From: Alphaproteobacteria bacterium
GTDB taxonomy: Bacteria; Pseudomonadota; Alphaproteobacteria; Micavibrionales; UBA2020
Length of the DNA stretch: 64,000 nucleotides
NCBI GenBank assembly: GCA_027483355.1
Contig: JAIXUW010000292.1
Span: forward strand, 222,226 to 286,225
Direction: 5' to 3'
This document shows, one piece after another, positions 21,501-54,350 of the stretch (within the stretch, counting starts at the first letter, position 1; every line of letters starts with the position of its first letter). Under the pieces are notes generated by a model, which worked only from the letters and a program-made list of their open reading frames with translations, was not told the DNA's origin and made no database searches. The translations under genes and the position numbers were made by a program.

Positions 21501-22054
21501 AAGCCTTCATGTGGTCTTGTGACCGAATTATACTTATTTTTTTGCGCAAATTCCGTCAAGATGCGCGTTGCGATCTGACAGATTTTTTGAACTGGAGTGG
21601 TAGCCGCGCCAAGTTGTTCCCCGGGTGCCGTCCACAACGTCTCCAGTCCCAATCGAATTACCTTTTTGCGATCAGGATAGTCTATCATGACAGAGTCAAA
21701 GTTTTTGTATCCGAGACCGTTGTTGTTCGTGTCGTCAGTTGGCAACGGGAATACAAATATAAAGGGACTCTTGTATGCCAAAAGTTTGGGCTCTAAACTG
21801 TCGATAACACGTGCTCGAATCTCTTTGGAGCGTTCAAATTCGTCTACGGGAGCGACAGCTGTCTGCTCCAAAAGCACAATGCGCGCAAAAGATTTTGCTT
21901 CCGGGATCGTGTCGCCGGGCACAAAATGATATTTACTAGTCGGATCGTGACACTTTTCCAGCTCGTCTGATAACATTTCTACGAAGCTGTCGAGAACGCG
22001 CGTCCTGACACTCTCGATGGGATGCAAATAGTCTGCGCAGATCGAAAACGACAT
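18599..22054 (-). CDS. large orphan protein, tandem paralog 1 (1151 aa), C-terminal NLS-like KRKR...KKRR
   Basis: ORF 18599..22108 starts on TTG; first ATG at 22054 (MSFSICADYLHP...). Collinear similarity to the upstream 1311-aa protein: FIFVFPLP/FIFPFPLG, IRLGLETLW/MRIGQETLW, ARTWTIGE/TRTWAVGE, VPSFENLLEW/APSFEMLFTW. No known domain recognised. Confidence 0.75.
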   Translation of the reverse strand: MSFSICADYLHPIESVRTRVLDSFVEMLSDELEKCHDPTSKYHFVPGDTIPEAKSFARIVLLEQTAVAPVDEFERSKEIRARVIDSLEPKLLAYKSPFIFVFPLPTDDTNNNGLGYKNFDSVMIDYPDRKKVIRLGLETLWTAPGEQLGAATTPVQKICQIATRILTEFAQKNKYNSVTRPHEGFGMPRQATAVFEPTNGIFDKRPWEKNEFGEIDVLDDNVRIGHSKAIPLQLINKHYVRTSTYTDNTLLRLHCISNDFSVRYLDLKQKDDLKNNEYVELRKYHWILMSRVAPSDRSAPLTRFSPDYARTWTIGEYMMSEKGQKLFQSMLIDDTNAFNTPEWRQMAVQGCVPSFENLLEWTIASANGNAPFTRLFNLGKFVDYNHAAPEKNQQFLGFELAFESRRSIPTASIISPYVAREPKVVCILSVHYQKDQNGKTVVLVNWLQFSGNSYVPVGARVERKCHTVEELIESLSEFQTVVVRPNNICVYAVLPVLAKLADEVGIVECAKTFIPVYHLDDKQLRLFKTGALTYDRKPCNNGFLDLPQMFEANIPLLPQFNLPEERKFTVDENAQFADYARRAYPFFSRTYRNAKIRETQIRSRYETGRIILDAAMGYAVVSICAKIYRLDMSSAGGKFDEFKATAFMQCVYGVFFDRTPFPIAGPVNTREYVNDLKNSDKETIQGPSRFFNQTERAIGIPLFDTHELGSYSSKIQWVKTSGDQLLLLELRGDKTSNYVETFISPMNLNFGKWTQDRDQNPDLSFSSINGFFCRVLELYSSEWNKFYPDYEDEMSSEEGWVKNLINPNDRRCYLITAEIDYFQNRWEMTSHGQTAKVFFNTLQQYLYLCGVYCVGLSDYAKIQGRDYKGQKINYVRGSDYSTLKSGLPSVYCDAAFGFLVHFPLSSYAMDIGSAVNQWQSDDLERDAFADAYPMVAIGSKTMRIVPGFEYDSNNLLHRLWINSGMDKCFTIRRTRNDVILKIILLAKAKPLFNVVLNMTCLQVREWATNALSQQNPVYMRLLDKLTDKAPVKSFCRACVDKLYRNKQYVDMLQWLVEESVETPLKGDIPLSSRLTEYFTGDKLAVVQKLQNDVHSCLRILALCLDESSEVGPDRVKFWNQMCAVPEQRIVKRKRIDASTDEDDKSKKRRVE

Positions 22055-22104: not shown

Positions 22105-25100
22105 TCAAAGCGGGCGGGTCTGGCGCAAAGGTTTTATTTGCGAAGATGAAGAAGAAGTCTTATTCTTGTTCTGTAGCATTTGTGCGTAAGATGTGAAGAG
22201 AGGGTTTTGGCTTGCTACCTGCTGTACACTGATGTTTGCAATGTTTGGACGTCTTGGCGCCGGGCGCGAGGAAACGTTTGTGTCGGACTGCCTGCTGACG
22301 CGATTTTGCACCGCGCTCCTCTCACTGGCCCTCGTGTACGGCACACGGTTTGGAATAGCAGCGTCAACATCCATTGCGTCGTCGGTATCGACACGGTTTG
22401 GAATAACAGCGTCGACGTCCATTGCGTCGTTGGTGCCAGTCTCCGCGAGGCGAGGGGAACTCGACGACAGGGCACGAAGAGAAGGACGATTGGTAATTGG
22501 TGGCTTTGGTAAGACCGCATTACTATCGTCTGAAGTGTTTCGTCTTGGCCTCTTTGCTTCCGGTGTCGCGTTTTCCTCGACGTTTTTCAGCAAAAGTATT
22601 CTTTCTTTTCTGGCCGGCGCAAGCTGTGGTAAAAATTTGGCCTTGCGGCTCCATTTCCTCGACGATCTAGTGTGTGTCTGGTTTTGCGCGGCCCATATGC
22701 TCAATTGCACACCACGTAGTTTAAACCAGGTTTGCGTCAATGCGTCCGACAGTTCAGATGAAAACCCCGATTCCGGGTCGGGTCTCTCTAAAAACGCCAT
22801 CCGAATAAACTCCTGTTCAAAATCAGTTATCCCACCAAGCGAGAATGCTGTTCTATCTTTCTTGGTCAAGAGATGCGAAAGCACCCATTCGACGCTTTCG
22901 TAGACTTCGCTGTCTTCATAGAGAGTTTCCAATGCGTATCGAAACGCATTAGTGTTGTTTTGATCGTCGGGGATGTCATACAACACGTCGATTAATTCGT
23001 TTGCATTCGACCCCTTTGGATATCTATAATCTGAATTCTTGTTAGATCGAAGAACCTCTTCGGAATTCCTGACGTATTCTTTCAGCTCTCCAATCGATAC
23101 GTTGAAACAAGCATTGATTGCCTTTCTAAAATTCAACATGAGTCGCATCCATACTTGAAATCTCGCGTTGACAACGTCCAAACTGAAAATGGCATTTTCA
23201 ATCGAAGAAACGCGGTCTTTGTTGTTGTCGTTGCCGGATTGTTTGATTTTTTCATCGCGATACCACTGTAGAACAGCCGGAAAGGTATCTTTTAGCTGCC
23301 CAGGTTCAAACGTCGTGTTCGCAATTTGCGACATTTCCTGGCCAGGACGAGGCCCGAATAGAGCCAAAAACCCAAACTTTGGCATGCTGTACAACGACGG
23401 CACAATTTCTTTAAACATTGCGTATGTGGCGCCATCAATGTAAAAGTGCCGGAAATATTTGTCTGTCCCGGAAATTCCCGAAGCGTCTTCAAGCATGAAG
23501 ACAAAGGCTCTGCTCACGTAACTTAATTGAGTGAGCAGTATGACCAAATATTCGGCTCTTAATCCGACGGCGTTCAATTCCCAACGACCCTGGAGTAATT
23601 GTAGTTCCGATGTCATCAAGGCGACATCTGTAGGTTTCATTGGATCATTGTTTTCCAAAACTGTTGTTCTGTTTCGTGTCAAGACAAACTCAAATCCGTT
23701 GACAAAAGGGTACACGAGGTCGGGGTCTTGATTGTAATTCTCGCTGGGTTCATCTTCGTCAGAAGACGTAGATATCGATCGCAGTAGACTTTTGCCATAA
23801 TTTGCGCAAGCAAGACGAACGGAAACTTTTGCATTAAACTTGGATCGCACTTCCCTCAATTTCACCAGCGCTAATTTTTTTCCAGCAAATGCCATCCAAG
23901 CAAATTTCTTTGTCTCATACTTTGCTTTCATTCGTTTGACATCGAAGTGATTGTCAAATCGATACTGCGCCTTGATTCCTAAACTAAGCTCGCGCTCGTA
24001 GACATATCTGGCCACAGAGTCCACCGCCACATTCGGATCCCAGTTAGAAAATGGTGTTTTGTCTTCTTGTCCGCCGCTGGCAAACTTTACTCCATTACCT
24101 CCCCTGTCTACGCCCATAGAGGGACCAAACATGGATGCCAGGACGGCGTATCTTCGACGCTCAATGTCACCCAGGTCTCTGCCGACCGTTTCAAATAGGT
24201 AGAAGGCACTACGTCTGGGATCTGTTCGAAACCCGGGAAGTTTGTCGTATACAAGACTCTTTGTAGGATCTTTTTTCGTGCGCTCAAGCAACGCTTTCCC
24301 AATGTAGGCTTGATAGTTTTCAAAGTCCGCCAGCGTGCCATTCTCGGCTTCTTCTTTTGACAATGTCTCGCGCTTGGAGAAAAGAGATTTTCCGAGGGCG
24401 TGAAGTGAGGCAACGTTCATAAATGCCTGGTCCTGGTACTCTGTCTGTGTTTCAAAGCTTTTACGCTGCATTGTAGACAGATGCGATACCGGGACGAAAA
24501 CTTTATAGATGGCTTGCTGCAATCCTACTCTGGCGTCCAATAACAATTGCACTCCCGAGACGCACATGTCAGCATCTTTCCACGCCTCGTCCTCAGTAAC
24601 AATCCATTCTAAAAACGATTCCATATTAGGCCAATCGTGTGGCACACGAGGTTTTCCCAGCTCGTCCACGTAACATTGTAAAGAAATCGCGTCTCTGGGC
24701 TTGGAATAGGTAACCACAATCGCTTTTCTCACATGGCTACGGCACTCCGTGTAATACTTGTCATCGACGCCTTCTGACTCAATAAGCTCTTGCGCGAGCG
24801 TAATGTCCGATCTACGTTGCAGATAAATGACAAACCCTGCTAACGAACGCGAATTGCGTATTTCAGCAAATCTTTGCGCTATAGGATCCTTCAAATCCAC
24901 ATGTATAGGAATCCCGCTAGCGCTGCACATGAGCCAAGTGAATAGCATTTCAAACGATGGTGCCACCCCTTGAGATGCTTGAATTCGATACTCTTCTGAA
25001 TTCAAACAAGATGGTCGGGTGCCCGCCAGCATGCGCTGAAATTCCGAGCGTATATTTGCATTTTCCAAAAGACCTTCACCCACTGCCCACGTACGAGTAA

Positions 25101-26040
25101 AGTCGATGCAATTCATCTTTCTGTACTCGTAAGATATTCGCTTCCTTGGCATGTTTTTCTTTTTTGGCTTGAACAACGTCTGGCGATTCATTAGAACCCA
25201 TGAAAGTTCCGCGCGTTCGTAGTAGGCTTCGTTGTCAAACTCTTCACGCGTGTCATTGTGATACTCCAACGTCGTCGTCCTAAAGTCCGATCCGATGAGA
25301 TAAAACACGACTCCGCTTCGGCCTCTGGATTCTTTGACAATTGATTGCGCGATTTCATGTCGTCTGACTAGATCCATCGGAACTGTACGCTCTTGTTCTA
25401 TTCGTTTCTCATCCCATCGAACGTTTACTTGATCATTTCGCAGCCTTTCAGCGTAACGTTTTCTGAGCGGCTTTTCTGTATAAGAACCGGACACGGCCTG
25501 AAAGGTCTTGTCGCCTAGAGGTCGAGTCAAGCCCGGGTTTTGTTCAACATACGGAGTTAACATTGTATGCAGCACCCTTGCCACTTGCTCAGCGGGAGTG
25601 GTGTCTTTCCAACTCGCCTCGGAACCAGATCGCCACAGCGTCTCCTGCCCGATTCTCATCACTCTGTCCTCGTCTTCGAAATTCACGATGATAGCTGGCA
25701 AGTTTTGGTACGAGTCGACGCGTTCTCCGAGAGGAAAAGGGAATATGAACACGTATTTCCCTTTATGCCGCTGAACCTGATTCTTGTGCAGATTTACAAA
25801 TAGAGCGCTTAGCTCGACTTCGTCTTGAGGCATTTTGGCAGGATAGAACAAGTCTAGGTCTACGAGAACGACCGTGGCTGCAGGAGCGTCCGAGCGGATG
25901 ACAAATTCGAACATCCGAGGCTCGTCGGGGTCCAGAATATTGACCAGTTGTTCATTTGCGTATTTAGTGAACAGTTTTAACGTAGGAGGTCTGCGAGCAG
26001 GGTCCACGCAGACATAGTCGACGACAACGTCGGCGTACAT
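22105..26040 (-). CDS. large orphan protein, tandem paralog 2 (1311 aa) with repeat/Ser-rich C-terminal extension
   Basis: ORF 22105..26058 starts on TTG; first ATG at 26040 (MYADVVVDYVCVD...). Paralogous to 18599..22054. The C-terminal ~200 aa are low-complexity and include the duplicated DAMDVDA(V/A)IPNRV. Confidence 0.75.
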   Translation of the reverse strand: MYADVVVDYVCVDPARRPPTLKLFTKYANEQLVNILDPDEPRMFEFVIRSDAPAATVVLVDLDLFYPAKMPQDEVELSALFVNLHKNQVQRHKGKYVFIFPFPLGERVDSYQNLPAIIVNFEDEDRVMRIGQETLWRSGSEASWKDTTPAEQVARVLHTMLTPYVEQNPGLTRPLGDKTFQAVSGSYTEKPLRKRYAERLRNDQVNVRWDEKRIEQERTVPMDLVRRHEIAQSIVKESRGRSGVVFYLIGSDFRTTTLEYHNDTREEFDNEAYYERAELSWVLMNRQTLFKPKKKNMPRKRISYEYRKMNCIDFTRTWAVGEGLLENANIRSEFQRMLAGTRPSCLNSEEYRIQASQGVAPSFEMLFTWLMCSASGIPIHVDLKDPIAQRFAEIRNSRSLAGFVIYLQRRSDITLAQELIESEGVDDKYYTECRSHVRKAIVVTYSKPRDAISLQCYVDELGKPRVPHDWPNMESFLEWIVTEDEAWKDADMCVSGVQLLLDARVGLQQAIYKVFVPVSHLSTMQRKSFETQTEYQDQAFMNVASLHALGKSLFSKRETLSKEEAENGTLADFENYQAYIGKALLERTKKDPTKSLVYDKLPGFRTDPRRSAFYLFETVGRDLGDIERRRYAVLASMFGPSMGVDRGGNGVKFASGGQEDKTPFSNWDPNVAVDSVARYVYERELSLGIKAQYRFDNHFDVKRMKAKYETKKFAWMAFAGKKLALVKLREVRSKFNAKVSVRLACANYGKSLLRSISTSSDEDEPSENYNQDPDLVYPFVNGFEFVLTRNRTTVLENNDPMKPTDVALMTSELQLLQGRWELNAVGLRAEYLVILLTQLSYVSRAFVFMLEDASGISGTDKYFRHFYIDGATYAMFKEIVPSLYSMPKFGFLALFGPRPGQEMSQIANTTFEPGQLKDTFPAVLQWYRDEKIKQSGNDNNKDRVSSIENAIFSLDVVNARFQVWMRLMLNFRKAINACFNVSIGELKEYVRNSEEVLRSNKNSDYRYPKGSNANELIDVLYDIPDDQNNTNAFRYALETLYEDSEVYESVEWVLSHLLTKKDRTAFSLGGITDFEQEFIRMAFLERPDPESGFSSELSDALTQTWFKLRGVQLSIWAAQNQTHTRSSRKWSRKAKFLPQLAPARKERILLLKNVEENATPEAKRPRRNTSDDSNAVLPKPPITNRPSLRALSSSSPRLAETGTNDAMDVDAVIPNRVDTDDAMDVDAAIPNRVPYTRASERSAVQNRVSRQSDTNVSSRPAPRRPNIANISVQQVASQNPLFTSYAQMLQNKNKTSSSSSQIKPLRQTRPL
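22343..22438 (-). repeat. 2 x 48-bp tandem repeat inside CDS
   Basis: acacggtttggaatagcagcgtcaacatccattgcgtcgtcggtatcg is followed by acacggtttggaataacagcgtcgacgtccattgcgtcgttggtgcc. It encodes the duplicated ...DAMDVDA(V/A)IPNRV motif. Confidence 0.8.
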
Positions 26041-27840: not shown

Positions 27841-28431
27841 ATGTTTAATAAACCCCCTACCGGGCGGCGCTTGTGTGCGGTTCGAGCCGCCACGCTCTTC
27901 ATCGCATCTTCTCGAATTTTCTTTTCGGACAAATTCAAAATGAGTGAAATAGTCGATTTTGATGTCAAAACCATGGATTGGGATGAATTTTATCATCACA
28001 GTAGAGGTTTCAGGGTCATTTTTCCCTCGCTGAAGGTGTACTGCGGCTTCCAATACGCTTTCAGTTTGCGTCCGCCGGGCTTTGCCGAAGGCGAGGTGCG
28101 TTCTTTCTGACATAATATAATTATATACACATTGTTCCATTTATTCACAGTGCTTCTATCATTTTATCCGGACCGGTTACCATTGCAGCTTTTGCGCGAC
28201 GTTGTTATCGCGTGCCCTACCGAGAATCGTCTCTGCGTTGCTTTCAGAAATTGTACTAGCATACGAGTCAAAGTCGGAGATGAGCGGAGTTCGTTTAAGG
28301 ACGCGCCGAAGGAAGGTAGAGGACTCTACACTTTCGACGCTCCGAACGGACTTGTAAAATTCAACGTGGATGGCGCGCAGTTCTATCTCGAAGCCGGCAC
28401 GTACTACTACAAAAATAAGATTGCTTTGTAA
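27841..28431 (+). CDS. hypothetical protein, probably two exons (27841 or 27940..28095 + 28189..28431)
   Basis: ORF 27841..28110 has ATGs at 27841 and 27940. The downstream same-strand ORF 28132..28431 begins on TTG and contains no ATG at all, so it cannot be an independent ATG-initiated gene. An in-phase GTGCGT...CAG interval (28096..28188) joins the two frames. Confidence 0.4.
28096..28188 (+). other. candidate spliceosomal-type intron (93 nt, tentative)
   Basis: Donor GTGCGT (same hexamer as the intron at 43348) and acceptor CAG, phase 0 on both sides. It contains the in-frame TGA at 28108. The branch-like motif is weak (GTTAC). Confidence 0.35.
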
Positions 28432-28545
28432 ATGTCATAAATCTGACACGAATTTTGTATTTTTTCTTTCATAGGGTTTCAAACCACGCCGAACAAGTCA
28501 CTACGTACTTACGTGAAAGGCGAGACGTTTGAGCATCTATTTAAG

Positions 28546-30585
28546 ATGCCGAATAGACAAAAGAAGCCGCATTACAATTGGCCTGTACCTAGCAAGGGCT
28601 CTTTGGAAGAGTTTCAAAACGGGTTTTCAAAGCAAGTTTATGATACCAGGTTCTTCCTTTTAAAGAGACCCGTGGCGTGTATCACGGCGGCTGCTGTCAA
28701 ATTGATTACGAGGCTCAATGTCCGAATTGTCAACGCGGACTCTGTTGATCTTCCGGTGCCAGAACAAGGAGCATCACAGCCCGTTATTTTCAACGAGGAC
28801 ACTCAGCCTATTCCTTCCTCACCCGTCGAATCTGCGGTTCAAAGCTTGAATTTTGAGGATTTTACTCAGAATGCCGAATCACAGCCGCCTTTTGAACCGA
28901 TGCCAGAGCTCGAGCCCGAGCCCGAGCAGGAGCCGGAGCCCGAACCTGAGTACACTCCCACGCACTCTTCAAGTGTCGCGAAGACCAAGCGCCGAGCTTC
29001 AGCGCTGCCAGTTCGCGATTTTCAACGAGAAGAGAAATCGGTTGCTAAATTGTGTGAGAAATACGACACTGTGGCGGAGCTACTTGGCGCTGGCCACAGT
29101 CGCCAAGAGTTCTTACTCTCTTCTCTTCAAACGGCGCCGTATTTACTGATCTTTGTTGTCACAAACGATTTGACCAACATTATCTTCTTTGGCGAGTACG
29201 AAATCGATTCTGGATTCTACTTGTCGGCTGACGTTTTCGGTCGCTGCTGGCTCCGCGTGACGGATCTACGCAAGTACAACGCAATCGTATTGAATGAGTT
29301 ATCTTGGCCTGTGAAAACTGGCTACTATTATCTGGGTACACGCCTGAATGGTAAGGGCCTGTTTATCGGACCTCGAGCTGTTCGATTTCAATCTCTCGGC
29401 ATGTCTGGCGGTGGATTTTCTGGCCGTCGTCCTTATTCCATGCAGTATTCCGAGATCGCGCCCGAATGCTTCAGGCCTGCATTAGGCGAGGTCGTATTCC
29501 AATTCGATCAGATGAAAGACGTCATCGTCTCGTCTGCCAGATGCGGGATATTGAATTTGGCACAACGCGGCGATGTATTCAGCGACGTGATGACTGGTCG
29601 CAAAGTGGACGAATTCCTGACGTCGACTCATGCTGAAGTTGACATGATGACATCAAATCGCTCATTGGCACACGCCGCAGGTCAATTGGACATTTCTGCA
29701 TTTATGCTATGGCAGTGTATTCCTCTTCACGCTTACGACAAGCCGTTTGCTTCTCTTGACAAGCTAGACGCAGCGTCTCTTTGGTTTTTCAAGAAGACAA
29801 TGGCTCGAACTGCCGACTTTCTGAAAAGGGGAAAGTTCTCCGAATCTTTCTTCATGCCATCATGTGTCAGGCAGAGCATCAGAGAAATGTCATTGTTCCG
29901 CGCTCCAATCGCATCGCCGGTGCGGGAGACTTCTATGGTCAACGAGATTTGGGCTAACTTGAAAATCATGGCATATGGGGACATTGAGCTCGCACCCTTG
30001 CTCTGGATTTTGAAAGACAAGCCCTTGAATTTGTCCAAGATGTGGTATGTCAAGTGGCCGTCTGCCATCGCAAGGGCGTGCCTCTTTCCTGCCGATATGA
30101 TTGCCTTGGAGGCTCGATTGAAGCAATATGCCTTGTCAGACTCTCGACTGGCACCTATTTTGTTCTACTGCGCTTTCTTAGTCTACAAATGGGCGGTTTC
30201 TGTCAACGTATTTAGTCCACTTTCCAGATTGTGCTTGCTCAATTGCATCGCGCAACTTGGCGAGATTGCTGGACTAGGGTGCATTTTCGAGGAAGCGCCT
30301 GCCGATGTCGCTCAATTACGCGACCAATGCGCCAAGAATTTGCTCAAAGTCGACGAGTGGAAACTGGTCTCTGTCGTCGCTACTTACTATTTGCATATTT
30401 TGCTTCGCAAGGTCGATCGGTCTGTCATTGAGGAAAATGGATTTTTCAGCGTCGACGAAAAGATGCACATTTCGTTAATGACGATTGACGAGACTCTCTT
30501 CTATCTGGCCAATTTGTCACCCGAATTTATAGCTGTCGAGGACAGTACATTGGAGTCGCCGGCGAAAAGAAGAAAGATTCATTGA
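28546..30585 (+). CDS. hypothetical protein (679 aa) with acidic PE-repeat and C-terminal KRRK
   Basis: ORF 28513..30585 starts on GTG; ATG at 28546 (MPNRQKKPHYNW...). Contains PELEPEPEQEPEPEPE and ends SPAKRRKIH. No catalytic motif recognised. Confidence 0.7.
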   Translation: MPNRQKKPHYNWPVPSKGSLEEFQNGFSKQVYDTRFFLLKRPVACITAAAVKLITRLNVRIVNADSVDLPVPEQGASQPVIFNEDTQPIPSSPVESAVQSLNFEDFTQNAESQPPFEPMPELEPEPEQEPEPEPEYTPTHSSSVAKTKRRASALPVRDFQREEKSVAKLCEKYDTVAELLGAGHSRQEFLLSSLQTAPYLLIFVVTNDLTNIIFFGEYEIDSGFYLSADVFGRCWLRVTDLRKYNAIVLNELSWPVKTGYYYLGTRLNGKGLFIGPRAVRFQSLGMSGGGFSGRRPYSMQYSEIAPECFRPALGEVVFQFDQMKDVIVSSARCGILNLAQRGDVFSDVMTGRKVDEFLTSTHAEVDMMTSNRSLAHAAGQLDISAFMLWQCIPLHAYDKPFASLDKLDAASLWFFKKTMARTADFLKRGKFSESFFMPSCVRQSIREMSLFRAPIASPVRETSMVNEIWANLKIMAYGDIELAPLLWILKDKPLNLSKMWYVKWPSAIARACLFPADMIALEARLKQYALSDSRLAPILFYCAFLVYKWAVSVNVFSPLSRLCLLNCIAQLGEIAGLGCIFEEAPADVAQLRDQCAKNLLKVDEWKLVSVVATYYLHILLRKVDRSVIEENGFFSVDEKMHISLMTIDETLFYLANLSPEFIAVEDSTLESPAKRRKIH

Positions 30586-40276: not shown

Positions 40277-40653
40277 TTTCCGGGCACGGGAGCGGTACGG
40301 GAACCGGAAACAAAAAAAAACTGGGCCGAACACAAAACACTGTGTGTTAGACACCGCAAAACCGACCAGCGCGTTCGAATGTTATCAAAAAGACGTACAA
40401 TACAATGTTCTAAAGAATAGACAGCTCAAAATCGAGGAGACGCGATGAATTGAAATTAACCAAGCGCCATTTTTCTGCTGTTGTCCAAACTTGCGCGCAA
40501 TTTCCCCCCTTTTGTCGACCCCCTATCGCCAACCCACATGTTTTTACAAATCATTTATATCCAAATATGTACACAAATCGATAGAACATCGAGAACTCGA
40601 TATAATACACTGAGTGGGATGAGAGGAGGAATTACAAAATGTAAACCAAGAGC

Positions 40654-43275: not shown

Positions 43276-45356
43276 ATGGGGGCTCAAACCCCATTTTCGG
43301 CCGTCGCTGTTTTTTTTGAATCTCTGCCGGAAGAACTCAAATTGACTGTGCGTTAAAACCCATTGCTTCTAAAACGTGTTCTGGCACTGACTCTTTGTTT
43401 TACGTATCTAGATCTTCTTCCTTTTGCCGTTTCGCAGTTTGAAAGCAGCGAGATTGGTCTGTAAAAAGTACGGTTCTATGCGCAAAAGTGCCAAACAAAG
43501 CCGTTGTTTTTTTTGTGACCTTGCACCTCGTATAGATGGTATCGAATTTCAATCGATCAAAGAATTTGGAAAAACTTGCATGAAAGATTCTTCGGGATAC
43601 CTCATTTCCCGCTGTACTCGACACACGACTTGGCGGAACAGCCCAAAAGCGTACCCAAAGCTGGCGCGAATACGTCGACGTTTCCTTCCAGCCCTCCCAT
43701 CATCTCATCTTCTGTGGAACCAAAACATGTTTTTTCATACGAGCCCGGCACGGACCGCGAGACGATTTTTCGTCGGTTGCATCGTGAATACAAACGCGTG
43801 AACAATCTCCAAGAGCGGTTGCTTTGGGCTATCGAAGGCCATTATTTTGAGCTTACAAAGCGGCTTGTGGAGAAAAAGGGCGCCGTGATCGAACGCGACA
43901 AGCCCAAAATGAGCTACGGTGCTCTGTACGCCGCTGCGAAAATTGGATGCGGACAGATCACAGCTTATTTGATTAATAAGGGCGCTAATATAAATGCATT
44001 GGCGGATGACAAATCGACACCGTTGTACATCGCGGCACAGAACGGGTGTATTGACTCTTTGAAATTGCTCATCAACGCCGGCGCTTCACTGGAGTGTGTT
44101 TTCAAGTACGTTTTCAAATTTTCATGTAAATATGCGATCTAACACGACTTTTGCACCGATAGTGATGGCTACACACCCCTCTACATTGCGTCCCAAACAA
44201 ATCGGGTGGAAGCCGTTCGACTTTTAGTCGACGCCAAAGCAAAAATCAATGCTTGTTGCTCTCAAGGTTCCACGCCTTTGTATATCGCCGCTCAACAGGG
44301 CCATTTGGAAGTCGCAAAGGTTTTAGTGTCCGCCGGCGCTAACATTGAATCCAAATTCAAAACGGGGTTTACTCCAATCTATGTCGCATCAAGAAACAGC
44401 CATTCGGCGATTGTAGAGTATTTGATTGAAAAAGGAGCGTCGGTCAACGCCAGTGACGGTGACGGATCGACGCCTCTTTACGTGGCATCCCAAAAGTGCG
44501 GTTTTGCGATTTTTATTCCAAACTACAATTGCATTATTCTAACAAACGTGTAAGCGCAGTGGCAGCATAGAATGTGTGCGGGTACTGCTTCAACACGGAG
44601 CTGATCACAGAATCGCCTTCATGAATGGATTCGCTCCGCTTTATATTGCTAGCCAAAATGGACACGCGGAAATTGTAGATCTTTTGTGCAAATCAGGCTC
44701 AGAGGTGAACCGCGTTGCGGACAACGACTTGACAGCGTTATACGTGGCCTGTCAAAACGGGCATGTCGGGGCTGTCGCGCGGCTGCTCAGCCACGGAGCC
44801 AATGCAGATGTTGTGTTCGACGCGGGTTATAGGCCACTTTACATTGCTTCCCAGAAGAACCATGTCGAAATCGTGGAATTGCTTGTCTCGCATGGCGCGC
44901 CTATCAACGCAGTCACGGGCAAGAAGGCAACCGCGTTATATGTTGCATGTCAAAAGGGCAATTTTCAAATTGTCAAATATCTTTTGGAACATGGAGCGGA
45001 TCCAGCGTTGCGGTTTCAAGTACGTTTTCGACGCCGCACTCCGGTTCTTTTTTACTTTCCATAATATCCAACACCTTATTTTCCCCTAGAACGGATTTAC
45101 ATGTCTGCATATTGCCGCGCAAGAAGGCAACGAAAGAGTAGTCGAGTATTTGCTAGAAAACACGAAAATCAACCCTTCAACAAAGTCGAATGATCAGAGA
45201 ATGGCAGCAGAAGTGGCAAAAAAGGCGACTATAACAAAAATAATCAGGGAGAAAATTGAGCAAATGTATACAAAGCCGGCACCCCATCCTGTGCAAACGC
45301 AGGCACTACAAAAACCTCGGTGCATGTGCCGAGAGTGTGTAGTCAGACGGTCTTAG
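43276..45356 (+). CDS. F-box + ankyrin-repeat protein, multi-exon (about 594 aa)
   Basis: Proposed exons are 43276..43347, 43412..43650, 43692..44105, 44163..44495, 44560..45019 and 45090..45356, totalling 1785 nt in frame.
- Exons 1+2 give MGAQTPFSAVAVFFESLPEELKLT|IFFLLPFRSLKAARLVCKKY, a canonical F-box.
- Later exons give about 11 ANK repeats (TPLYIAAQNGH..VV..LL..GA).
- Splicing restores the repeat register at every junction.
- The ORF-track pieces 43576, 44206, 44576 and 45150 all start on TTG/GTG, not ATG.
- The exon 2/3 junction is tentative. Confidence 0.75.
43348..43411 (+). other. spliceosomal-type intron (64 nt)
   Basis: GTGCGT...cactgactc (CTGAC about 20 nt from the 3' end)...TCTAG. 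It removes an in-frame TAA and joins the two halves of the F-box in phase 0. Confidence 0.7.
43651..43691 (+). other. candidate very short intron (41 nt, tentative)
   Basis: A frame change from the 43424 frame to the 43576 frame is required between about 43600 and 43700. GTACCC...tttccttccag gives the right phase. The alternative 43614..43660 (47 nt) also fits, so this is not resolved. Confidence 0.3.
44106..44162 (+). other. spliceosomal-type intron (57 nt)
   Basis: GTACGT...tctaacac...gatAG. It joins ...LECVF + N + DGYTPLYIASQ across a split AA|T codon. Confidence 0.8.
44496..44559 (+). other. spliceosomal-type intron (64 nt)
   Basis: GTGCGG...ttctaacaaac...gcgCAG. It joins ...TPLYVASQ + N + GSIECVRVLLQHGAD. 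Confidence 0.8.
45020..45089 (+). other. spliceosomal-type intron (70 nt)
   Basis: GTACGT...atccaacacc...ttttcccctAG (good polypyrimidine tract). It joins ...GADPALRFQ|NGFTCLHIAAQEGN in phase 0. Confidence 0.8.
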
Positions 45357-45372
45357 ACACATTGTAAACAAA

Positions 45373-46353
45373 ATGGATGCTGTTGTTCTTATTACATTGC
45401 TAGAAACAATTGATTTTGCTGCTAAAAAGCACTCCAAGCAACGCAGAAAGAACGCCGATGCCTCGCCCTACATCGGCACGCCCTCTTTGCATTTTTTTCG
45501 CGCGCGTGTATGACACAGCAACGCCTAACACTTTTATGTTCAAACACAGAGCATCCGATTGGCGTTGCCAAATTGCTGGCAGCGGTTGGTGGTGTCACCG
45601 ACATTTCTACGCTCCAAGCCGGCGTATTACACGATACGCTTGAAGACACGGACACTACATTTCAAGAATTGCAGTCCAAGTTTGGCGAGAAAGTGGCCAA
45701 AATTGTGCGGGAAGTACGTACTTTGAGTTTGGCGTTGCCAAGAACGCTAAGAACGGCTCGTTTTCAGGCCCTTGTTTCTTACAAATCCCACACAGGTTAC
45801 CGACGACAAGAGTCTGCCCAAAGACGAACGCAAGAGACTTCAGATCTCACATGCTCCTCATATGTCGACCGAGGCCAAGCTCGTAAAGCTCGCCGACAAG
45901 CTGCACAATCTTCAATCCCTTCAGATCGAGTCTCCTGCTTTATGGTCTAAATCTCGTATTCAAGGATACTTTGCGTGGGCGCACGCTGTCGTCGCTGGTC
46001 TTCGAGGCACAAATCTTTGGCTCGAATCCGCGTTGAAGCAAGTTTTCTCTGGATCGTTCAAGTGCAAAGAGGGCATGTTTCCTACTTTGCCCGAAAACAC
46101 AGAGGCTGCTCTCGAAAATTATCTCAAGGAAATGAAAGAAGTGGATCAGACGGAGAAAGCGCCAAAAATTGTGGGCATCGTCGTTGGTAACATGTGCTTA
46201 AAAACAAAGCCGTGCCAGCATGTTGTTGAAATGGTTTTTGCCGACGGTCGCAGAGAGAAAAAGCGCATGGACGCCGCTGATGTCGCTTTGGCCTTCAAGA
46301 ACGCAAACCTGACGATTCCCGATCATTTTGTAAACGATGTAGCTCACTTTTGA
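45373..46353 (+). CDS. MESH1/HDDC3-like HD-domain hydrolase ((p)ppGpp-hydrolase/small-alarmone-hydrolase fold) with extra C-terminal ~60-aa domain, 3 exons
   Basis: Exon 1 is MDAVVLITLLETIDFAAKKHSKQRRKNADASPYI.... Exon 2 is HPIGVAKLLAAVGGVTDISTLQAGVLHDTLEDTDTTFQELQSKFGEKVAKIVRE. Exon 3 is VTDDKSLPKDERKRLQISHAPHMSTEAKLVKLADKLHNL.... The order matches metazoan MESH1 as I recall it: (DFAA.KH..QRRK....PYI.HP.GVA, LLHDT.EDT, EVTDDK.LPK.ERKR.Q, KLVKLADKL.NL). The C-terminal 46165..46329 is an added domain. Confidence 0.8.
45506..45549 (+). other. first intron of the HD-hydrolase gene (boundaries ambiguous: 45506..45549 GT-AG, or 45476..45549 GC-AG)
   Basis: The acceptor aaacaCAG|AG is preceded by gcctaacac. 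The only in-phase GT donor (GTGTAT at 45506) leaves a 10-aa insertion (GTPSLHFFRA) inside the conserved PYI.HP motif. A GC donor at 45476 would give PYIEHPIGVA, matching the family motif. Confidence 0.5.
45714..45795 (+). other. spliceosomal-type intron (82 nt)
   Basis: GTACGT...cttac...cacaCAG. It joins KIVRE|VTDDKSLPKDERKRLQ in phase 0 and restores the conserved EVTDDK motif. Confidence 0.85.
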
Positions 46354-47119: not shown

Positions 47120-47350
47120 ATGGAACCGAGAAAAGTAGCCCAAATCATACCCAGTGAACTGTGCCGTTCAACTTTTCCGTGCCTACATTCGGTTAAAATT
47201 GTCTTCCAAGACGGAACTGTGGAAACCAAAACAATGGATGGCAACGACATTGCTCAACTCTACCTTAATGCAAACATACAAGTCCCCGCGCACTTTGCCA
47301 TGTATATATCGTCTCCAACGTTTAGTGCAAGCGGTCTCTCTAAACACTAA
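47120..47350 (+). CDS. small protein (76 aa) homologous to the C-terminal domain of the HD hydrolase
   Basis: MEPRKVAQIIPSELCRSTFPCLHSVKIVFQDGTVETKTMDGNDIAQLYLNANIQVPAHF aligns with KIVGIVVGNMCLKTKPCQHVVEMVFADGRREKKRMDAADVALAFKNANLTIPDHF. About 24 of 55 positions are identical by my manual alignment. Confidence 0.55.
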   Translation: MEPRKVAQIIPSELCRSTFPCLHSVKIVFQDGTVETKTMDGNDIAQLYLNANIQVPAHFAMYISSPTFSASGLSKH

Positions 47351-47376: not shown

Positions 47377-47448
47377 GCCGGCGTGGTTCAATTGGTAGAA
47401 TACCTGGTTGTGGCTCAGGCGACGATGGTTCGATTCCACCCGCTGGCA
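47377..47448 (+). tRNA. tRNA-His (anticodon GTG)
   Basis: Manual cloverleaf:
- acceptor gccggcg/cgctggc (one G-U)
- D arm gttc-aattggta-gaat
- anticodon arm cctgg-ttGTGgc-tcagg
- 4-nt variable region
- T arm gatgg-ttcgatt-ccacc (one A-C mismatch, B-box GGTTCGATTCC)
- discriminator A
There is no encoded G-1 or CCA, which is the eukaryote style. Confidence 0.7.
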
Positions 47449-47453
47449 TTGCG

Positions 47454-47530
47454 GACGGCTTAGCTCAGGTGGGATAGTGCTTCATCACGCGCGTATGGGG
47501 AGGTCGCTGGTTCGACCCCAGCAGCTGTCG
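47454..47530 (+). tRNA. tRNA-like gene with abnormal 11-nt anticodon loop (isotype undetermined)
   Basis: Manual fold:
- acceptor gacggct/agctgtc (one G-U)
- U8-A9
- D arm gctc-aggtggga-tagt (3 bp)
- anticodon stem cttca/tgggg (5 bp, two G-U)
- loop tcacgcgcgta (11 nt, contains the palindrome ACGCGCGT)
- variable region aggtc
- perfect T arm gctgg-ttcgacc-ccagc
It starts 5 nt after tRNA-His and is followed by a T5 run. Confidence 0.5.
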
Positions 47531-48983: not shown

Positions 48984-49163
48984 TTTTGTTCTATAAAGTC
49001 AATCTTGCGATTTTTTGCACTGGCAAACCACGAAGAGCACAGTTCAAGTGAAAAAAACTTTCCTTTTGGGGGTGCTTTGTGAACGCGCGAGCTCTGCGGC
49101 CGAAAATCGGAGTTTCCATGTGCTGGCCGATTATTTTTAGAATTGATTCACATAAATACGCGA

Positions 49164-49294
49164 AATAACGCAACGTAACGCAGCGCGACGCAACGCGGCG
49201 CACCAGCGCGCAAAGGACCGCAGCGCAGCGCAACGCAACGCGACGCACCGCAACCCACCGCAGCGCAGCGCGACGCACCGCAGCGCAACGCAGC
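49164..49294. repeat. degenerate pentanucleotide array (CGCAR/CGCGA/CGCAC)n, about 26 units
   Basis: cgcaa cgtaa cgcag cgcga cgcaa cgcgg cgcac ... cgcag cgcaa cgcag, with strict 5-nt phasing visible across thirteen 10-nt blocks. It lies in the divergent spacer between 48983(-) and 49394(+). It creates three spurious overlapping minus-strand ORFs (AALRC-type). Confidence 0.85.
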
Positions 49295-49393
49295 TCTTGA
49301 AATTCCCTTGCCGTTTATATTTAACAAACAATAAATCCATAATAATACGACAAATACATTCTCAATATTAAGTCTAAAACGTTTCTGCAAAAT

Positions 49394-50919: not shown

Positions 50920-51012
50920 CACATGTGATTATTTATTTGTATACTCCGAAAGCTAAAAAAAAAGAAGGCGAGAGTCAAGTCCGACCCGGGACCGCGTTCT
51001 ATTTTTAGCTCG

Positions 51013-51032
51013 CCACCTACTCAGGTAGGTGG
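51013..51032. repeat. perfect 8-bp stem / 4-nt loop hairpin (ccacctac tcag gtaggtgg)
   Basis: Read directly from the sequence. It abuts the iteron array. The half-site CCACCTACT recurs at 52312..52320. Confidence 0.7.
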
Positions 51033-51080
51033 ACTCGGCCTCGACTCTGGCTCGACTCGGGTTCGACTCTGGGGCGACTC
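51031..51080. promoter_or_regulatory. five iterons containing (C/G)GACTC at exact 11-bp spacing
   Basis: GACTC occurs at 51032, 51043, 51054, 51065 and 51076 (ggactcggcct cgactctggct cgactcgggtt cgactctgggg cgactc). One copy per helical turn, in an ORF-poor region. Confidence 0.55.
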
Positions 51081-51115
51081 GCTCTCGCGCGTATTTTTTG
51101 TTCTATCATGTAAAA

Positions 51116-51418
51116 ATGTGTTTGATAAACCATATACATAGCAAATATATACACGTCCGGGCGCGTAAAATTTGCTGTGGGGAGAAAAGTCGGGAGCGTC
51201 GCAACGACCTCGTTGCGATCGTAAAAACTTTTTGCCCGCAGGCGATTCGCAGTTTTATAGAGACATGTCTTAAATCATGCGCGCAAATTAGGTGCACAGA
51301 TATAATAACAAATACCGCGGGTTGGATGCAAAGGACCGTAAGCACAATGCGTTTTGTGCGGCAGACTTTGAATTACTCAGCTTCTTCACGCCGCGTGATT
51401 TTACCACATGTTTATTAG
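51116..51418 (+). CDS. possible small Cys-rich protein (100 aa), best-preserved member of a locally triplicated decayed family
   Basis: MCLINHIHSKY...RRNDLVAIVKTFCPQA. Related truncated copies start at 51704 (MNLIGGINDRGKCNDP...) and 52058 (MCLGKIDCDWAKTNPNEVVAIGKTFRA*). Confidence 0.25.
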   Translation: MCLINHIHSKYIHVRARKICCGEKSRERRNDLVAIVKTFCPQAIRSFIETCLKSCAQIRCTDIITNTAGWMQRTVSTMRFVRQTLNYSASSRRVILPHVY

Positions 51419-52417
51419 CACAATATATAAGAATACACGTTTGAAATACAAACTCGCTGGTTTTATTCAAATCCGCGCTATACAATCTTGGTGCTAGCAT
51501 GCAAAAGCGTCGTTCGGCGCTATACCATTTTTTTGATCCGCGCAAAAATTCATATACACTTTCACATATCTAGTTAGGAATTTACAAATCAATCAGAGGT
51601 CTTAAATACGGCGAGATGCACGGATAATTCTACACGCGACCAAATGCATCGGCAAATGATATTATACTCAATTCCGTCCATAACTTTCATGTTGAAAATC
51701 AAAATGAATTTGATTGGCGGGATAAACGATAGAGGCAAGTGCAACGACCCAACAAGCGGTCTCACGATGACTGGAAACTTTTTTGCGGTGGGACCCGTCC
51801 GGGTGTACCCTCCCGGGCGAAAAAGTACGAACGTCGTTAGGACGTTGCGGGTTCCTCTATCGTTTTTCTTTCAGGACAAATTCTCAGAACATCTGATTTT
51901 GTATACTGTTGACTAATCTGAATATAATTGCATCCGCCAACGCATTGTATCGGTGCCAGGTCGATTTCATGCGACTTTGGGGTCGAATCTACGCCGGGCG
52001 ATTTAAGAACCGAAACCATTTTTTTAGTCATATTCATATTGTATAGATCAATAAAAAATGTGTTTGGGGAAAATCGATTGCGATTGGGCCAAAACTAACC
52101 CAAACGAGGTCGTTGCGATTGGGAAAACTTTTCGGGCCTAGGCAACGTCACACATTTCCGGGGATAATTTCTTTTACTACATAAAAATACATGTAACAGT
52201 ATACAATTGGTTGGAGCAAAAATGTCGGGGCGGAGAGCGCGAACCGAGCGTTTTTGTCCGCGGTCGCCCAGAAAAAAAAACCCAAAAGGCGCGTTAAGGC
52301 GCCGCTCGCCCCCACCTACTAATGTTGCGCGCCTGCGCCGTTCTTCAAGTATCTTAAGTGCAATTTTCACATTTGTATGCGTCCATATATCTTGTGAACC
52401 TCATTTTCATTTGAAGA

Positions 52418-52792
52418 ATGGAGAATCCAATGTCCGCGAGCGAGAAAACGCAACGTTTGCTGGCTGCGCTAGTGCAACAGAACGCGGTTATCCTAAAAGA
52501 GTTTGGAAAAATCGCAGTGACCATGTCACGCATGTGCAAGAAAGTGGATGCTTATATTGCGACAACAGCGACAAAGGAGATGGAGAGGCGTTTTTCCGAC
52601 GCTGCCACCGACGACTGTGCGGTAACTAAGACTCGTGCCAGTGAGCTTGCGCCGCCGCCCATTTCATCCAACATGACACGACAATTGAGTCGGTTGACGG
52701 AACTTGCTAATTATGAAGAAAATTTGGATATTGCGCGCGCGTATGATGCGCAGCCACTCAGTGATCTTGTCTCAAACCTGGGTACGCTCTGA
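52418..52792 (+). CDS. hypothetical protein (124 aa)
   Basis: ATG ORF (MENPMSASEKTQRLLAALVQQNAVILKEF...), predicted helical. No motif recognised. Confidence 0.5.
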   Translation: MENPMSASEKTQRLLAALVQQNAVILKEFGKIAVTMSRMCKKVDAYIATTATKEMERRFSDAATDDCAVTKTRASELAPPPISSNMTRQLSRLTELANYEENLDIARAYDAQPLSDLVSNLGTL

Positions 52793-52835
52793 TATTTTTT
52801 CTGTTTTTACATATAACAATAACTGACTATGTCAA

Positions 52836-54350
52836 ATGACAAATTCAGACGCGTTGTTGAATTCCGTGCCGGGTTTGGGCGCTGCTTCAACTTCTGACAC
52901 TTTTCCGGTAAGTTTGGCGAGTCCCGCGGCAGCTGCTATCGCTGCTGCTGTCGCTGCAATTGAACCTGTCTCGGCTCCTAGTGAATCTGTCGGTCCCGTT
53001 GCACCGAAAAGGCCTATATCCAATCCCAAGAATGTAACATTTGAGATCCCGGCCTCTATATCCTCGGTTTCAAGCGAGAGCGGCCAAGTTCTCACCGCCA
53101 AACCGCCTAAGAAGTCGAACGGCGGACGTCCCAGAAAACGCAAGGAGATGACTCCGTCGTCTCCGTCTTCAGGCTCTTCCACTTCATTTATCGTTGCCGC
53201 CGAATCGGCCAAACGCCGTAAAATGACGCCCTCTTCGACGCGTACTCCAACAATACCCATGTGGGGTTCTGGAATCAGCAAACGAAAGAGGGTCTACTTT
53301 TTCGGAAGTTCGCCCACTGACACTTGCCAAATTTCTGATGTCAGATCCGACCCCGATAGTTTTTTCATTGGCGACGAATCCTGCCGCATATACGCTGCCA
53401 GCATGCAGACGATTTATCAGTCAGTGCTGTGTCTTGACGCCATTCAACAGCGCAAGGAGATTAGCGTTTGCAAGTCTGTCGGCGACGCGAATAAGAAAGC
53501 GTGGACGTCGTCTGGATCTGGAAGCATCAAAGAGTTTTTGGCTGATTTCAAAATCGGCGAACCTACTGGCAAGGTGACAAAGTTCAACTTTCACAACTGT
53601 GCCGACTGCACCGCTGCGCCTGGAAACGGATCGGCGTTCACGCGGCAAAGCACTGCGTTTTTGGATATCTTTCTGAGCAAATACGCTCCAGAAGCCACCG
53701 CGGATCCAGTTGCAGGAGATAAGCGTCGCAAGATTTACTTGGTAGGCCATGCTTGCTTTCAGCAGGAAAAGAATAAGACGAGAGATCCAGATGGAATCTA
53801 CGTACATTTTAGAATCCTGTACCGCATTCTTCAGTATGGCTACAATTCTTTGAGTATTGATACGCTGATGCGCGGCATTTCCAAAATGGGAGACTACCCT
53901 CCCGTCTGTTACACGTATTGCTCGTGCAAATCGAAACCTGAGGGGTGCAACGCCACGGAATGCGTACCAGGCTTTAGTGAATTGCCAAACATGCAACAAA
54001 TCAACGAATTCAACGACAAATATGCTCAGCATCCTGAAATCGCGCTCGTGCATCCTCAAGAGCATGATTTAGAGCCGCAAGAAAACGTCGACGCGGCAGA
54101 AAACATTTTGATTGAAGAGACAAATTCGGATGCCATGGATACGGCACCGTCCGCCGGCATGGCTGAAAGCTGGCCATCGCCACACGAAGAATTCGAAACC
54201 GCTGGGCAAGTAGAATCGCCAATCAGCGACTTGTATGCGCGCTACGGTATTGACACACATCATATGGCGATGGAAGTCGACCCGATCACTGTATCGGGCT
54301 CGGTTTTGGACAACCGATTCATCTACGATGAGCCAGTACAAGGGTTCTAG
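52836..54350 (+). CDS. hypothetical protein with AT-hook-like GGRPRKRK and Cys-rich C-terminal half
   Basis: 504-aa ATG ORF. Ala/Ser/Pro-rich N-terminus, then KKSNGGRPRKRKEM (GRP core), then a Cys/His-containing region. The antisense ORFs 52832..53281 and 53421..54065 are judged spurious. Confidence 0.65.
   Translation: MTNSDALLNSVPGLGAASTSDTFPVSLASPAAAAIAAAVAAIEPVSAPSESVGPVAPKRPISNPKNVTFEIPASISSVSSESGQVLTAKPPKKSNGGRPRKRKEMTPSSPSSGSSTSFIVAAESAKRRKMTPSSTRTPTIPMWGSGISKRKRVYFFGSSPTDTCQISDVRSDPDSFFIGDESCRIYAASMQTIYQSVLCLDAIQQRKEISVCKSVGDANKKAWTSSGSGSIKEFLADFKIGEPTGKVTKFNFHNCADCTAAPGNGSAFTRQSTAFLDIFLSKYAPEATADPVAGDKRRKIYLVGHACFQQEKNKTRDPDGIYVHFRILYRILQYGYNSLSIDTLMRGISKMGDYPPVCYTYCSCKSKPEGCNATECVPGFSELPNMQQINEFNDKYAQHPEIALVHPQEHDLEPQENVDAAENILIEETNSDAMDTAPSAGMAESWPSPHEEFETAGQVESPISDLYARYGIDTHHMAMEVDPITVSGSVLDNRFIYDEPVQGF

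Follow-up and report, generated by a model that had tools for sequence, protein, structure and literature searches.

A stretch of 64,000 nucleotides from contig JAIXUW010000292.1 (assembly GCA_027483355.1, positions 222,226 to 286,225; hereafter the window, numbered from its first nucleotide) holds a dense, virus-like array of genes, two of which are interrupted by short introns of spliceosomal type. These two neighbors are gene A, which encodes a protein with an F-box and ankyrin repeats, and gene B, which encodes a MESH1-type hydrolase. Seven intervals in this pair are genuine major (U2-type) spliceosomal introns, which would be spliced out in vivo, and introns of the same type are probably present in two orphan genes elsewhere in the window. 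The explanation that best accounts for these observations, to which we assign a probability of about 0.8, is that the U2-type introns are an element-wide property, are spliced in a nucleus, and were not captured together with the genes in which they lie. A first-pass annotation had already proposed spliceosomal-type introns in a dense virus-like array, with the access to a nuclear spliceosome that these require, and this part of its proposal is supported here.

Seven Introns in Two Adjacent Genes

Gene A (43276–45356, forward strand) consists of six exons (43276–43347, 43412–43467, 43536–44105, 44163–44495, 44560–45019, and 45090–45356). Intron A1 (43348–43411, 64 nt, phase 0, GTGCGT...CTGAC...TAG) lies inside the F-box, between LKLT and IFFL. 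Intron A2 (43468–43535, 68 nt, phase 2, GTACGG...GTGAC...TATAG) separates the frame of the F-box from that of the ankyrin repeats, and its excision rebuilds VCKK-WYRISIDQRIWKNL. Farther downstream are A3 (44106–44162, 57 nt, phase 2, GTACGT...CTAAC...TAG), which contains an in-frame stop codon, A4 (44496–44559, 64 nt, phase 2, GTGCGG...CTAAC...CAG), and A5 (45020–45089, 70 nt, phase 0, GTACGT...CCAAC...TAG). Gene B (45373–46353, forward strand) has three exons (45373–45475, 45550–45713, and 45796–46353) and two introns: B1 (45476–45549, 74 nt, phase 1), of the GC-AG type (GCACGC...CTAAC...CACAG), and B2 (45714–45795, 82 nt, phase 0, GTACGT...CTTAC...CAG), at the junction between VRE and VTDDK.

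Five of these introns (A1, A3, A4, A5, and B2) had been listed in the first-pass annotation. They exist at exactly the coordinates proposed, with the donors, acceptors, and lengths described and with the expected branch motifs, the branch A being 14–21 nt from the 3′ end; A2 and B1 were outside that list. Excision of the five does create the junctions that were quoted in their favor (LECVF-N-DGYTPLYIAS, YVASQ-N-GSIECVRVLL, LRFQ-NGFTCLHIAAQ, and REVTDDK), but it leaves both open reading frames (ORFs) incomplete. Similarly, it rebuilds the EVTDDK motif, as stated, but the F-box is joined to the ankyrin frame only when A2 is excised as well. When all seven intervals are removed, clean ORFs of 585 aa (gene A) and 274 aa (gene B) are obtained. 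The remark that the ORF fragments of this region all start on TTG or GTG is true only in part, since those at 45373 and 45510 start on ATG.

The spliced ORF of gene A, which is free of stop codons, encodes an N-terminal F-box followed by about 12 ankyrin repeats. In Pfam, it matches F-box-like with 45.5 bits (cut-off 24.3) over residues 14–59, that is, across both F-box junctions, as well as F-box with 34.1 bits (cut-off 20.5) and Ank_2 with 383 bits. The product is an F-box protein by this measure, with predicted binding to Skp1. From the F-box to the C-terminus, it is collinear with seven environmental proteins (34–40% identity), each encoded by a single ORF on contigs of up to 92 kb and each with the identical architecture of an F-box and 12 ankyrin repeats. 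ANK relatives of gene A are also found on contigs of giant-virus metagenome-assembled genomes (GVMAGs) in IMG/VR. No close cellular ortholog of gene A was found, the cellular matches being generic ankyrin proteins only.

The evidence for gene B is of the same kind. Once spliced, it reaches 72.1 bits for HD_4 in Pfam (cut-off 27.2) and is 54–62% identical to MESH1 proteins. Aligned with 10 homologs, it shows no gap across either junction and has all of the invariant residues, with H36, H62-D63, and D123 in invariant columns; it is thus a MESH1/HD_4 hydrolase, for which enzyme activity is predicted. If B1 is retained, a stop codon follows SPYI, whereas its excision rebuilds SPYI-E-HPIGVA. Only with B1 as the junction is PYI-E-HPIGVA obtained free of an insertion, and the PYI[NE]HP motif is kept in 11 of 11 sequences. 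GT donors were considered in place of the GC donor of B1 and rejected; they would add 8–10 residues within this motif.

For all seven introns, then, coordinates, signals, restoration of the ORFs, and collinearity with homologs are in agreement. It could be argued instead that the interruptions stem from pseudogene decay, by random insertions and frameshifts, or from errors of assembly, and one neighboring stretch, 8349–8918, truly is frameshifted. However, the frame in that pseudogene changes within 6 nt and without an inserted block, whereas each break in genes A and B is a discrete block of 57–82 nt with GY...YAG termini and a branch motif, the excision of which costs no homologous residue. 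Assembly error is further contradicted by an independent Logan contig that is 100% identical to the genomic sequence elsewhere in the window. Decay and misassembly are therefore effectively refuted as explanations.

Splice Signals and Intron Class

Both strands of the window (128 kb of strand sequence) were scanned for GT[AG]CG[TG] followed, within 50–90 nt, by a branch-like pentamer and YAG, with dinucleotide shuffles as a control. The full motif is not rare in itself, with nine matches observed and 9.3 ± 3.1 in the shuffles per 64 kb. What sets genes A and B apart is clustering: six of the nine matches are on one strand within 2.45 kb (Poisson estimate of about 4e-8 from the shuffle numbers), and each of the six falls exactly at a break in the reading frame, where splicing restores collinearity with the homologs. 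The matches at 24996–25094, 15008–15097, and 13388–13441 were rejected as due to chance; they have a GC content above 0.5, are not T-rich, and lie in intact frames of long ORFs.

Together with three probable introns in orphan genes, described below, ten introns of 57–93 nt are recognized, eight of the GT-AG and two of the GC-AG type. The donor is G-Y-R-C-G in all ten: G at +1, C at +4, and G at +5 are invariant, with T or C at +2 and A or G at +3. The C at +4 is unusual in comparison with the common GTRAGT. At the acceptor, AG is invariant and takes the form YAG, and a branch motif (CTAAC, CTGAC, CTTAC, CCAAC, or GTGAC) is present in nine of the ten introns, with the branch A 14–28 nt from the 3′ end. 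The intron bodies are T-rich and low in GC (GC 0.39 and T 0.35, against a GC of 0.485 in coding sequence). When the ten are aligned, they are similar at the splice signals only (mean column identity 39%), and they are therefore not copies of an introner, i.e., of a transposon-derived intron family.

Two of these introns are more alike at their 5′ ends. The donors of A3 and A5 have a 16-mer in common (44100–44115 and 45014–45029, forward strand), made up of TTTCAA on the exon side and GTACGTTTTC on the intron side, and their positions within the ankyrin repeat differ by a single nucleotide (phase 2 for A3, phase 0 for A5). One source of this likeness could be an intron that was duplicated along with its repeat and then slid; another could be a site preferred for insertion.

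Group I introns occur in some giant virus genes, which lends some plausibility to the alternative that the intervals are self-splicing (group I or II) introns, or else U12-type or tRNA-type ones, rather than U2-type. However, 57–93 nt is far too short for a ribozyme core of several hundred nucleotides, and Rfam, applied at its gathering threshold to the 64 kb, finds tRNA only. As for the U12 class, it is defined by an [AG]TATCCTT donor together with a TCCTTAAC branch site, and the donors here, of the GYRCG form, do not match that consensus. Any class other than U2 is thus improbable in the extreme.

Probable Introns in Two Orphan Genes

It had been suggested that the introns are confined to two host-like genes. 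This suggestion did not hold up in a scan of the window for places without read-through at which a GY...AG interval links two frames, both open and positively coding. Outside genes A and B, the scan yielded two good cases, in the genes that end at 30585 and at 54350.

The first (27940–30585, forward strand) is an orphan gene with probably three exons (27940–28095, 28189–28396, and 28475–30585), modeled on frame continuity and encoding 824 aa. An ATG-initiated exon of 52 codons and a second exon of 69 codons run in frame into an orphan ORF of 702 codons, and the model occupies a gap of 650 nt that is otherwise gene-free. The introns would be 28096–28188 (93 nt, phase 0, GTGCGT...CAG, donor context GAG/GTGCGT) and 28397–28474 (78 nt, phase 1, a GC-AG intron with GCACGT...CTGAC...TAG, a T-rich tail, and the donor context G/GCACGT). 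In the second gene (52418–54350, forward strand, 621 aa), one probable intron, 52782–52848 (67 nt, phase 1, GTACGC...CTGAC...CAG), joins the ORF at 52418 in frame to that of 52836–54350. Introns 28397–28474 and 52782–52848 both have a GC content of 0.28, which is matched by only 0.07% of coding windows of 70 nt. From frame and signals, we consider it quite probable that the 27940 gene is spliced as modeled and, with somewhat less assurance, still likely that the 52418 gene is.

Since introns in orphan genes are invisible to homology, the apparent confinement to genes A and B is largely an effect of ascertainment. In addition, the occurrence of the same splice signature at in-frame junctions of at least one, and probably two, orphan genes makes the introns a property of the element and not of two imported genes.

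Elsewhere, the interval 40321–40398 on the reverse strand has a GTACGT donor, an internal CTAACACACAG, and a CCCAG end, and lies in the presumed 5′ untranslated region (UTR), 45 nt upstream of an ATG at 40276. It is a possible 5′UTR intron, at a place where the reading frame offers no test. Two further intervals, 8241–8316 and 667–717, could not be decided upon as introns.

Were the Introns Captured With Their Genes?

The first-pass annotation proposed that genes A and B were captured from a cellular genome as genomic DNA, or else that the whole window is an integrated element. On the first account, both were acquired recently as unspliced chromosomal DNA of the host and have kept host introns, the native viral genes being intronless. 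Both genes do have cellular homologs (MESH1 with up to 65% identity; ANK proteins everywhere), and 7 of the approximately 10 introns are found in these two adjacent genes. If the introns had come with the DNA of a donor, however, their positions should recall those of cellular MESH1 genes, and in a sample of one vertebrate, one sponge, and one dictyostelid they do not. In gene B, B1 interrupts the E codon of YI-E-HP (phase 1), and B2 falls between RE and VTDDK (phase 0). MESH1 of the fish Cynoglossus has two phase 1 introns, in the G codons of HPIG and TPVGW, and one of phase 0 between VLQ and AALLHD, and the single intron of the sponge Sycon is between FGDE and VCKIV. The positions in the window thus coincide with none of the three fish positions or the one sponge position, and the MESH1 gene of the dictyostelid Tieghemostelium is intronless.

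Intronless, too, is the closest relative of gene B, an environmental protein (P0001) encoded by an uninterrupted ORF, which has 62% identity with gene B and the PYIEHP variant in common with it. It is found on an ORFan-dense metagenome contig of at least 163 kb (ENA ERZ27250632 k141_246916, L001), as well as on a contig of 847 kb. There it sits among tightly packed orphan ORFs and adjoins an Eco57I-type methyltransferase. This contig looks like that of another giant virus, and MESH1 may be a recurrent giant-virus gene.

Gene B has also been remodeled. Like MESH1/HDDC3 (metazoan SpoT homolog 1) and the MESH1 proteins of protists, it has the HD_4 domain with all of the invariant residues of the catalytic core, in about residues 1–205, and like the latter it has the protist-type tail (...VFxxxFxxxxxxYPxxP...LxxY). 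Unlike MESH1/HDDC3, it carries an extra, element-specific C-terminal domain of about 55 aa, and its introns are placed differently from those of the animal genes. The only relative of this extension (encoded at about 46150–46350) is a small ORF of 76 aa located 770 nt downstream (47120–47350, forward strand; 44% identity over 55 aa, E = 1e-13), and the domain has no match in Pfam. The fusion of MESH1 to a local domain with a paralog so close by speaks against recent capture, as does the presence of the architecture of gene A as single ORFs on environmental contigs, with no close cellular ortholog.

The composition of the two genes is likewise that of residents. The GC content at third codon positions (GC3) is 0.505 and 0.516 in genes A and B and 0.505–0.545 in the intron-bearing genes, compared with 0.52 ± 0.054 in the remaining genes, and the codon-usage divergence of A and B is within the range of other genes in the window. 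Gene A also has an upstream element in common with orphan genes. The hexamer CCCCCT is present 78–110 nt upstream of the ATG in 8 of 41 upstream regions, vs. 0.42 expected (starts at 6616, 7792, 9045, 9904, 27940, 38651 on the reverse strand, 43276, and 46458), with a total count in the window that is not above chance. In gene A, it is 98 nt upstream of the ATG, and the same element precedes seven orphan genes. It could be a core-promoter or transcription-start element. With the same intron type in orphan genes as a further argument, acquisition of the introns together with captured host DNA appears unlikely. Instead, the introns would have been gained or kept within the viral lineage.

Gene B is without an upstream CCCCCT element, and its ATG follows the stop codon of gene A after a spacer of just 16 nt (45354–45375). 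The two genes may be co-transcribed, or the promoter of gene B may lie inside gene A.

Several points weigh against the preferred reading, that is, against U2-type introns as an element-wide property of viral DNA spliced in a nucleus. The exact spliced proteins were not found in a collection of 15 billion proteins, and Logan contigs L005 and L006, the only other public copies detected, consist of collinear genomic DNA. In the 27940 gene, intron 28096–28188 is without a clear branch motif, and the available homologs do not reach the junctions, so that signals, frame, and composition are what supports the three orphan introns. The interval 52782–52848 could instead be a 43-nt spacer between two separate ATG-initiated genes. 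The cellular MESH1 sample did not include the true donor lineage, if there is one. Finally, the viral hallmark genes (major capsid protein, PolB, A32 ATPase, VLTF3, and D5 primase-helicase) had no Pfam match among 39 ORFs, in a window that covers 64 of 292 kb.

A Nuclear Phase and the State of the Element

Because the introns are of spliceosomal type, expression of the genes that contain them needs access to the nuclear spliceosome. A minority of genes (about 4 of 41) would then be transcribed where the major spliceosome of the host acts, i.e., in the nucleus, the rest being single ORFs. Two independent hints of a nuclear phase are provided by other features of the window. Motifs resembling nuclear localization signals (NLS), K[KR]RK, are present in 5 of 39 proteins, vs. 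0.8 in residue shuffles; K[KR]RK[IV] is found in the products of the genes that start at 10998, 22054 (reverse), 50919 (reverse), 60867, 27940, and 52418, and in the 27940 gene the motif is a C-terminal KRRKI, which its two distant marine homologs (P0125 and P0126) retain unchanged. The second hint is a tRNA-His gene (GTG anticodon, 47377–47448, forward strand), identified with ARAGORN and, with 58 bits, in Rfam. Its discriminator is A73, and G-1 is not encoded, which in established tRNA-His biology is the eukaryotic nuclear type. Five nucleotides beyond it, at 47454–47530 on the same strand, is a tRNA-like sequence to which ARAGORN assigns a 4-base anticodon (cgcg) and which is not called by Rfam at the gathering threshold; this could be a tRNA that has degenerated or that contains an intron.

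The DNA may be that of a free virus with a nuclear phase, of an episome, or of an endogenous copy. In the last case, the window would be a piece of a giant-virus element resident in a eukaryotic chromosome, with introns gained after integration through intron-generating processes of the host. This possibility overlaps with the preferred explanation on the nature of the introns and differs from it on when and where they arose. It would fit the frameshifted pseudogene paralog at 8349–8918, the gene-free gaps of 1.0–1.5 kb, the microsatellite-like repeats, and the occurrence of 100%-identical fragments in short Logan contigs of two separate runs (SRR16126875 and SRR16126878), which host-level coverage in a genome project would be expected to produce. 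Moreover, introns in decaying endogenous viral elements have been documented (PMC12768974). On the other hand, about 86% of the window is in intact gene models, the ORFs are nearly all uninterrupted, including some of 1150–1809 aa, which speaks against advanced decay, and the 64 kb showed neither host-like flanking genes nor transposons. Introns in the absence of decay are also a feature of phaeovirus elements that are active (PMC13236599). We regard an origin of the introns after integration as less likely than not.

At a comparably tentative level, the window may belong to an active giant virus, from a lineage essentially absent from public data, which replicates via the nucleus of its host and whose own genes, not derived from the host, have been colonized by introns independently. 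In that event, one of the colonized genes would hold five introns, the proportion of GC-AG introns (2 of 10) would be unusually high, and the invariant G-Y-R-C-G donor, as the fingerprint of a protist host that is possibly marine, could serve in the search for that host. The literature on the GTACGT donor provided nothing usable for inferring the host.

The Gene Array of the Window

The window has a GC content of about 47% and about 41 genes, distributed over both strands, most of which have their ATG a few codons past the preceding stop. Pfam matches are few: RCC1 and Kelch, a subtilase, a dual-specificity phosphatase, a kinase-like protein, a Sina RING domain, and DUF285. Homology searches covered a small number of ORFs, such as the 1809-aa ORF and the 27940 gene, most others being judged by Pfam only. 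The 1809-aa ORF had no homolog but itself among 5.8 billion clustered proteins. An exhaustive HMMER search with the 824-aa product of the 27940 gene returned its own exon fragments, as produced by gene callers, and three distant homologs of its C-terminal half. Scans of IMG/VR for related loci gave nothing, either for the 1809-aa ORF or for a profile of the 27940-gene family. Look-ups of four ORFs of the window and of the protein P0121 by exact sequence led to no indexed contig, an exact 39-mer was absent from the GTDB genome contigs and from IMG/VR, and a metagenome scan with P0191, one of the collinear homologs of gene A, did not retrieve the contig of that protein. A dense, ORFan-rich, virus-like array is a fair description of the window; the label is based on density, ORFans, tandem paralogs, and the ANK relatives on GVMAG contigs.

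Two pairs of tandem orphan paralogs, all on the reverse strand, are found in this array: 18599–22054 and 22105–26040, of 1151 and 1311 aa (21% identity over 1100 residues, E = 7e-46), and 11672–12286 and 12290–12844, of about 200 aa each (31% identity). Repeats include a 12-nt periodic array of about 60 units (15994–17100, reverse strand; local GC 58%) inside a 1378-aa RCC1/Kelch ORF, and a 5-nt (CGCAR) microsatellite-like array at 49159–49308, in the gap upstream of the gene at 49394. The 1.5 kb at 50929–52417 have no convincing coding frame on either strand and contain an imperfect 48-nt inverted repeat (51706–51753 and 51836–51883); hidden exons were sought there, and none was convincing. 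The pseudogene at 8349–8918 (forward strand) is a paralog of the P-loop gene at 9045–9635 (forward strand), with 35–49% identity in three pieces. It is split over three frames, each change of frame occurring within about 6 nt. A spliced structure was considered for it and rejected, as the comparison with the paralog reveals frameshifts.

Comparison With Intron-Bearing Viruses

Spliceosomal introns have been documented in pandoraviruses, chloroviruses, phaeovirus elements, mirusviruses, and endogenous giant viruses, and the present case is therefore one of a known kind. Like a pandoravirus genome, the window is rich in ORFans and in F-box and ankyrin proteins, has introns in a minority of genes (here about 4 of 41), and implies a nuclear phase. 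The GC content of pandoraviruses is roughly 60% or more, compared with about 47% in the window. Again unlike in pandoraviruses, the 1809-aa ORF is without a homolog other than itself, and for the 27940 gene there are just three, environmental and distant. In pandoraviruses, 7.5–13% of genes, including orphan genes, as well as UTRs, contain spliceosomal introns that have been validated by RNA-seq (Legendre et al., 2018, PMC5995976), whereas those of the window are known from sequence alone. Intron-bearing pandoravirus genes have about 1.2 introns each (PMC5995976), in contrast to the five of gene A.

In Ectocarpus, endogenous phaeovirus elements of about 290–400 kb (51.5–52.5% GC), which are fully active, contain host-type spliceosomal introns in 14 of 372 genes; their splice sites match those of Ectocarpus, and hallmark genes are recognizable (PMC13236599). 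There, introns are not a sign of decay, and as in the window they are found in few genes. The window differs in that Pfam matched no hallmark gene among its 39 ORFs. The introns of mirusviruses are most often about 80 bp long, with GT-AG termini and branch sites of the CTAAC/CTGAC type, and nuclear replication has been inferred for these viruses (PMC12768974). Length, termini, and branch sites are similar in the window. However, mirusvirus introns are concentrated in genes of the virion module, at up to 0.65 per kb, and many encode homing endonucleases (PMC12768974), whereas the window has about 0.16 introns per kb, none of them with an ORF, and no mirusvirus marker was identified in it.

Chloroviruses, in the accounts that cite them (PMC5995976; PMC13236599), have short spliceosomal introns in the DNA polymerase and pyrimidine-dimer glycosylase genes. 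As far as these accounts go, the window resembles them in having short introns in few genes and tRNA genes, and chloroviruses have an early nuclear phase; in them, a single intron is found in each of very few conserved genes, and these viruses have many database relatives, whereas the window has multi-intron genes, and the ORFs searched are nearly without relatives. SmDNAV-like viruses ("Ariadnavirales") were considered as the source lineage and set aside, with no link to the window and no introns reported in the paper that describes them. What is distinctive here is the combination of five introns in one gene, a GC-AG share of 2 of 10, an invariant C at +4, and a lineage almost without database relatives.

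Significance

Spliceosomal introns are among the clearest signs, from sequence only, that a large DNA virus expresses genes via the nucleus of its host. Only a few groups of giant viruses show such introns, and the origin of viral introns is an open question. The element described here, of a lineage not otherwise known, is a further case; its introns occur in genes with cellular homologs and probably in orphan genes as well. Prokaryote-style gene calling has left these genes in fragments in public protein collections. Gene A, with five introns, and its intronless environmental homologs constitute a natural system for dating intron gain, and the splice-signal fingerprint of the element could point to its host.

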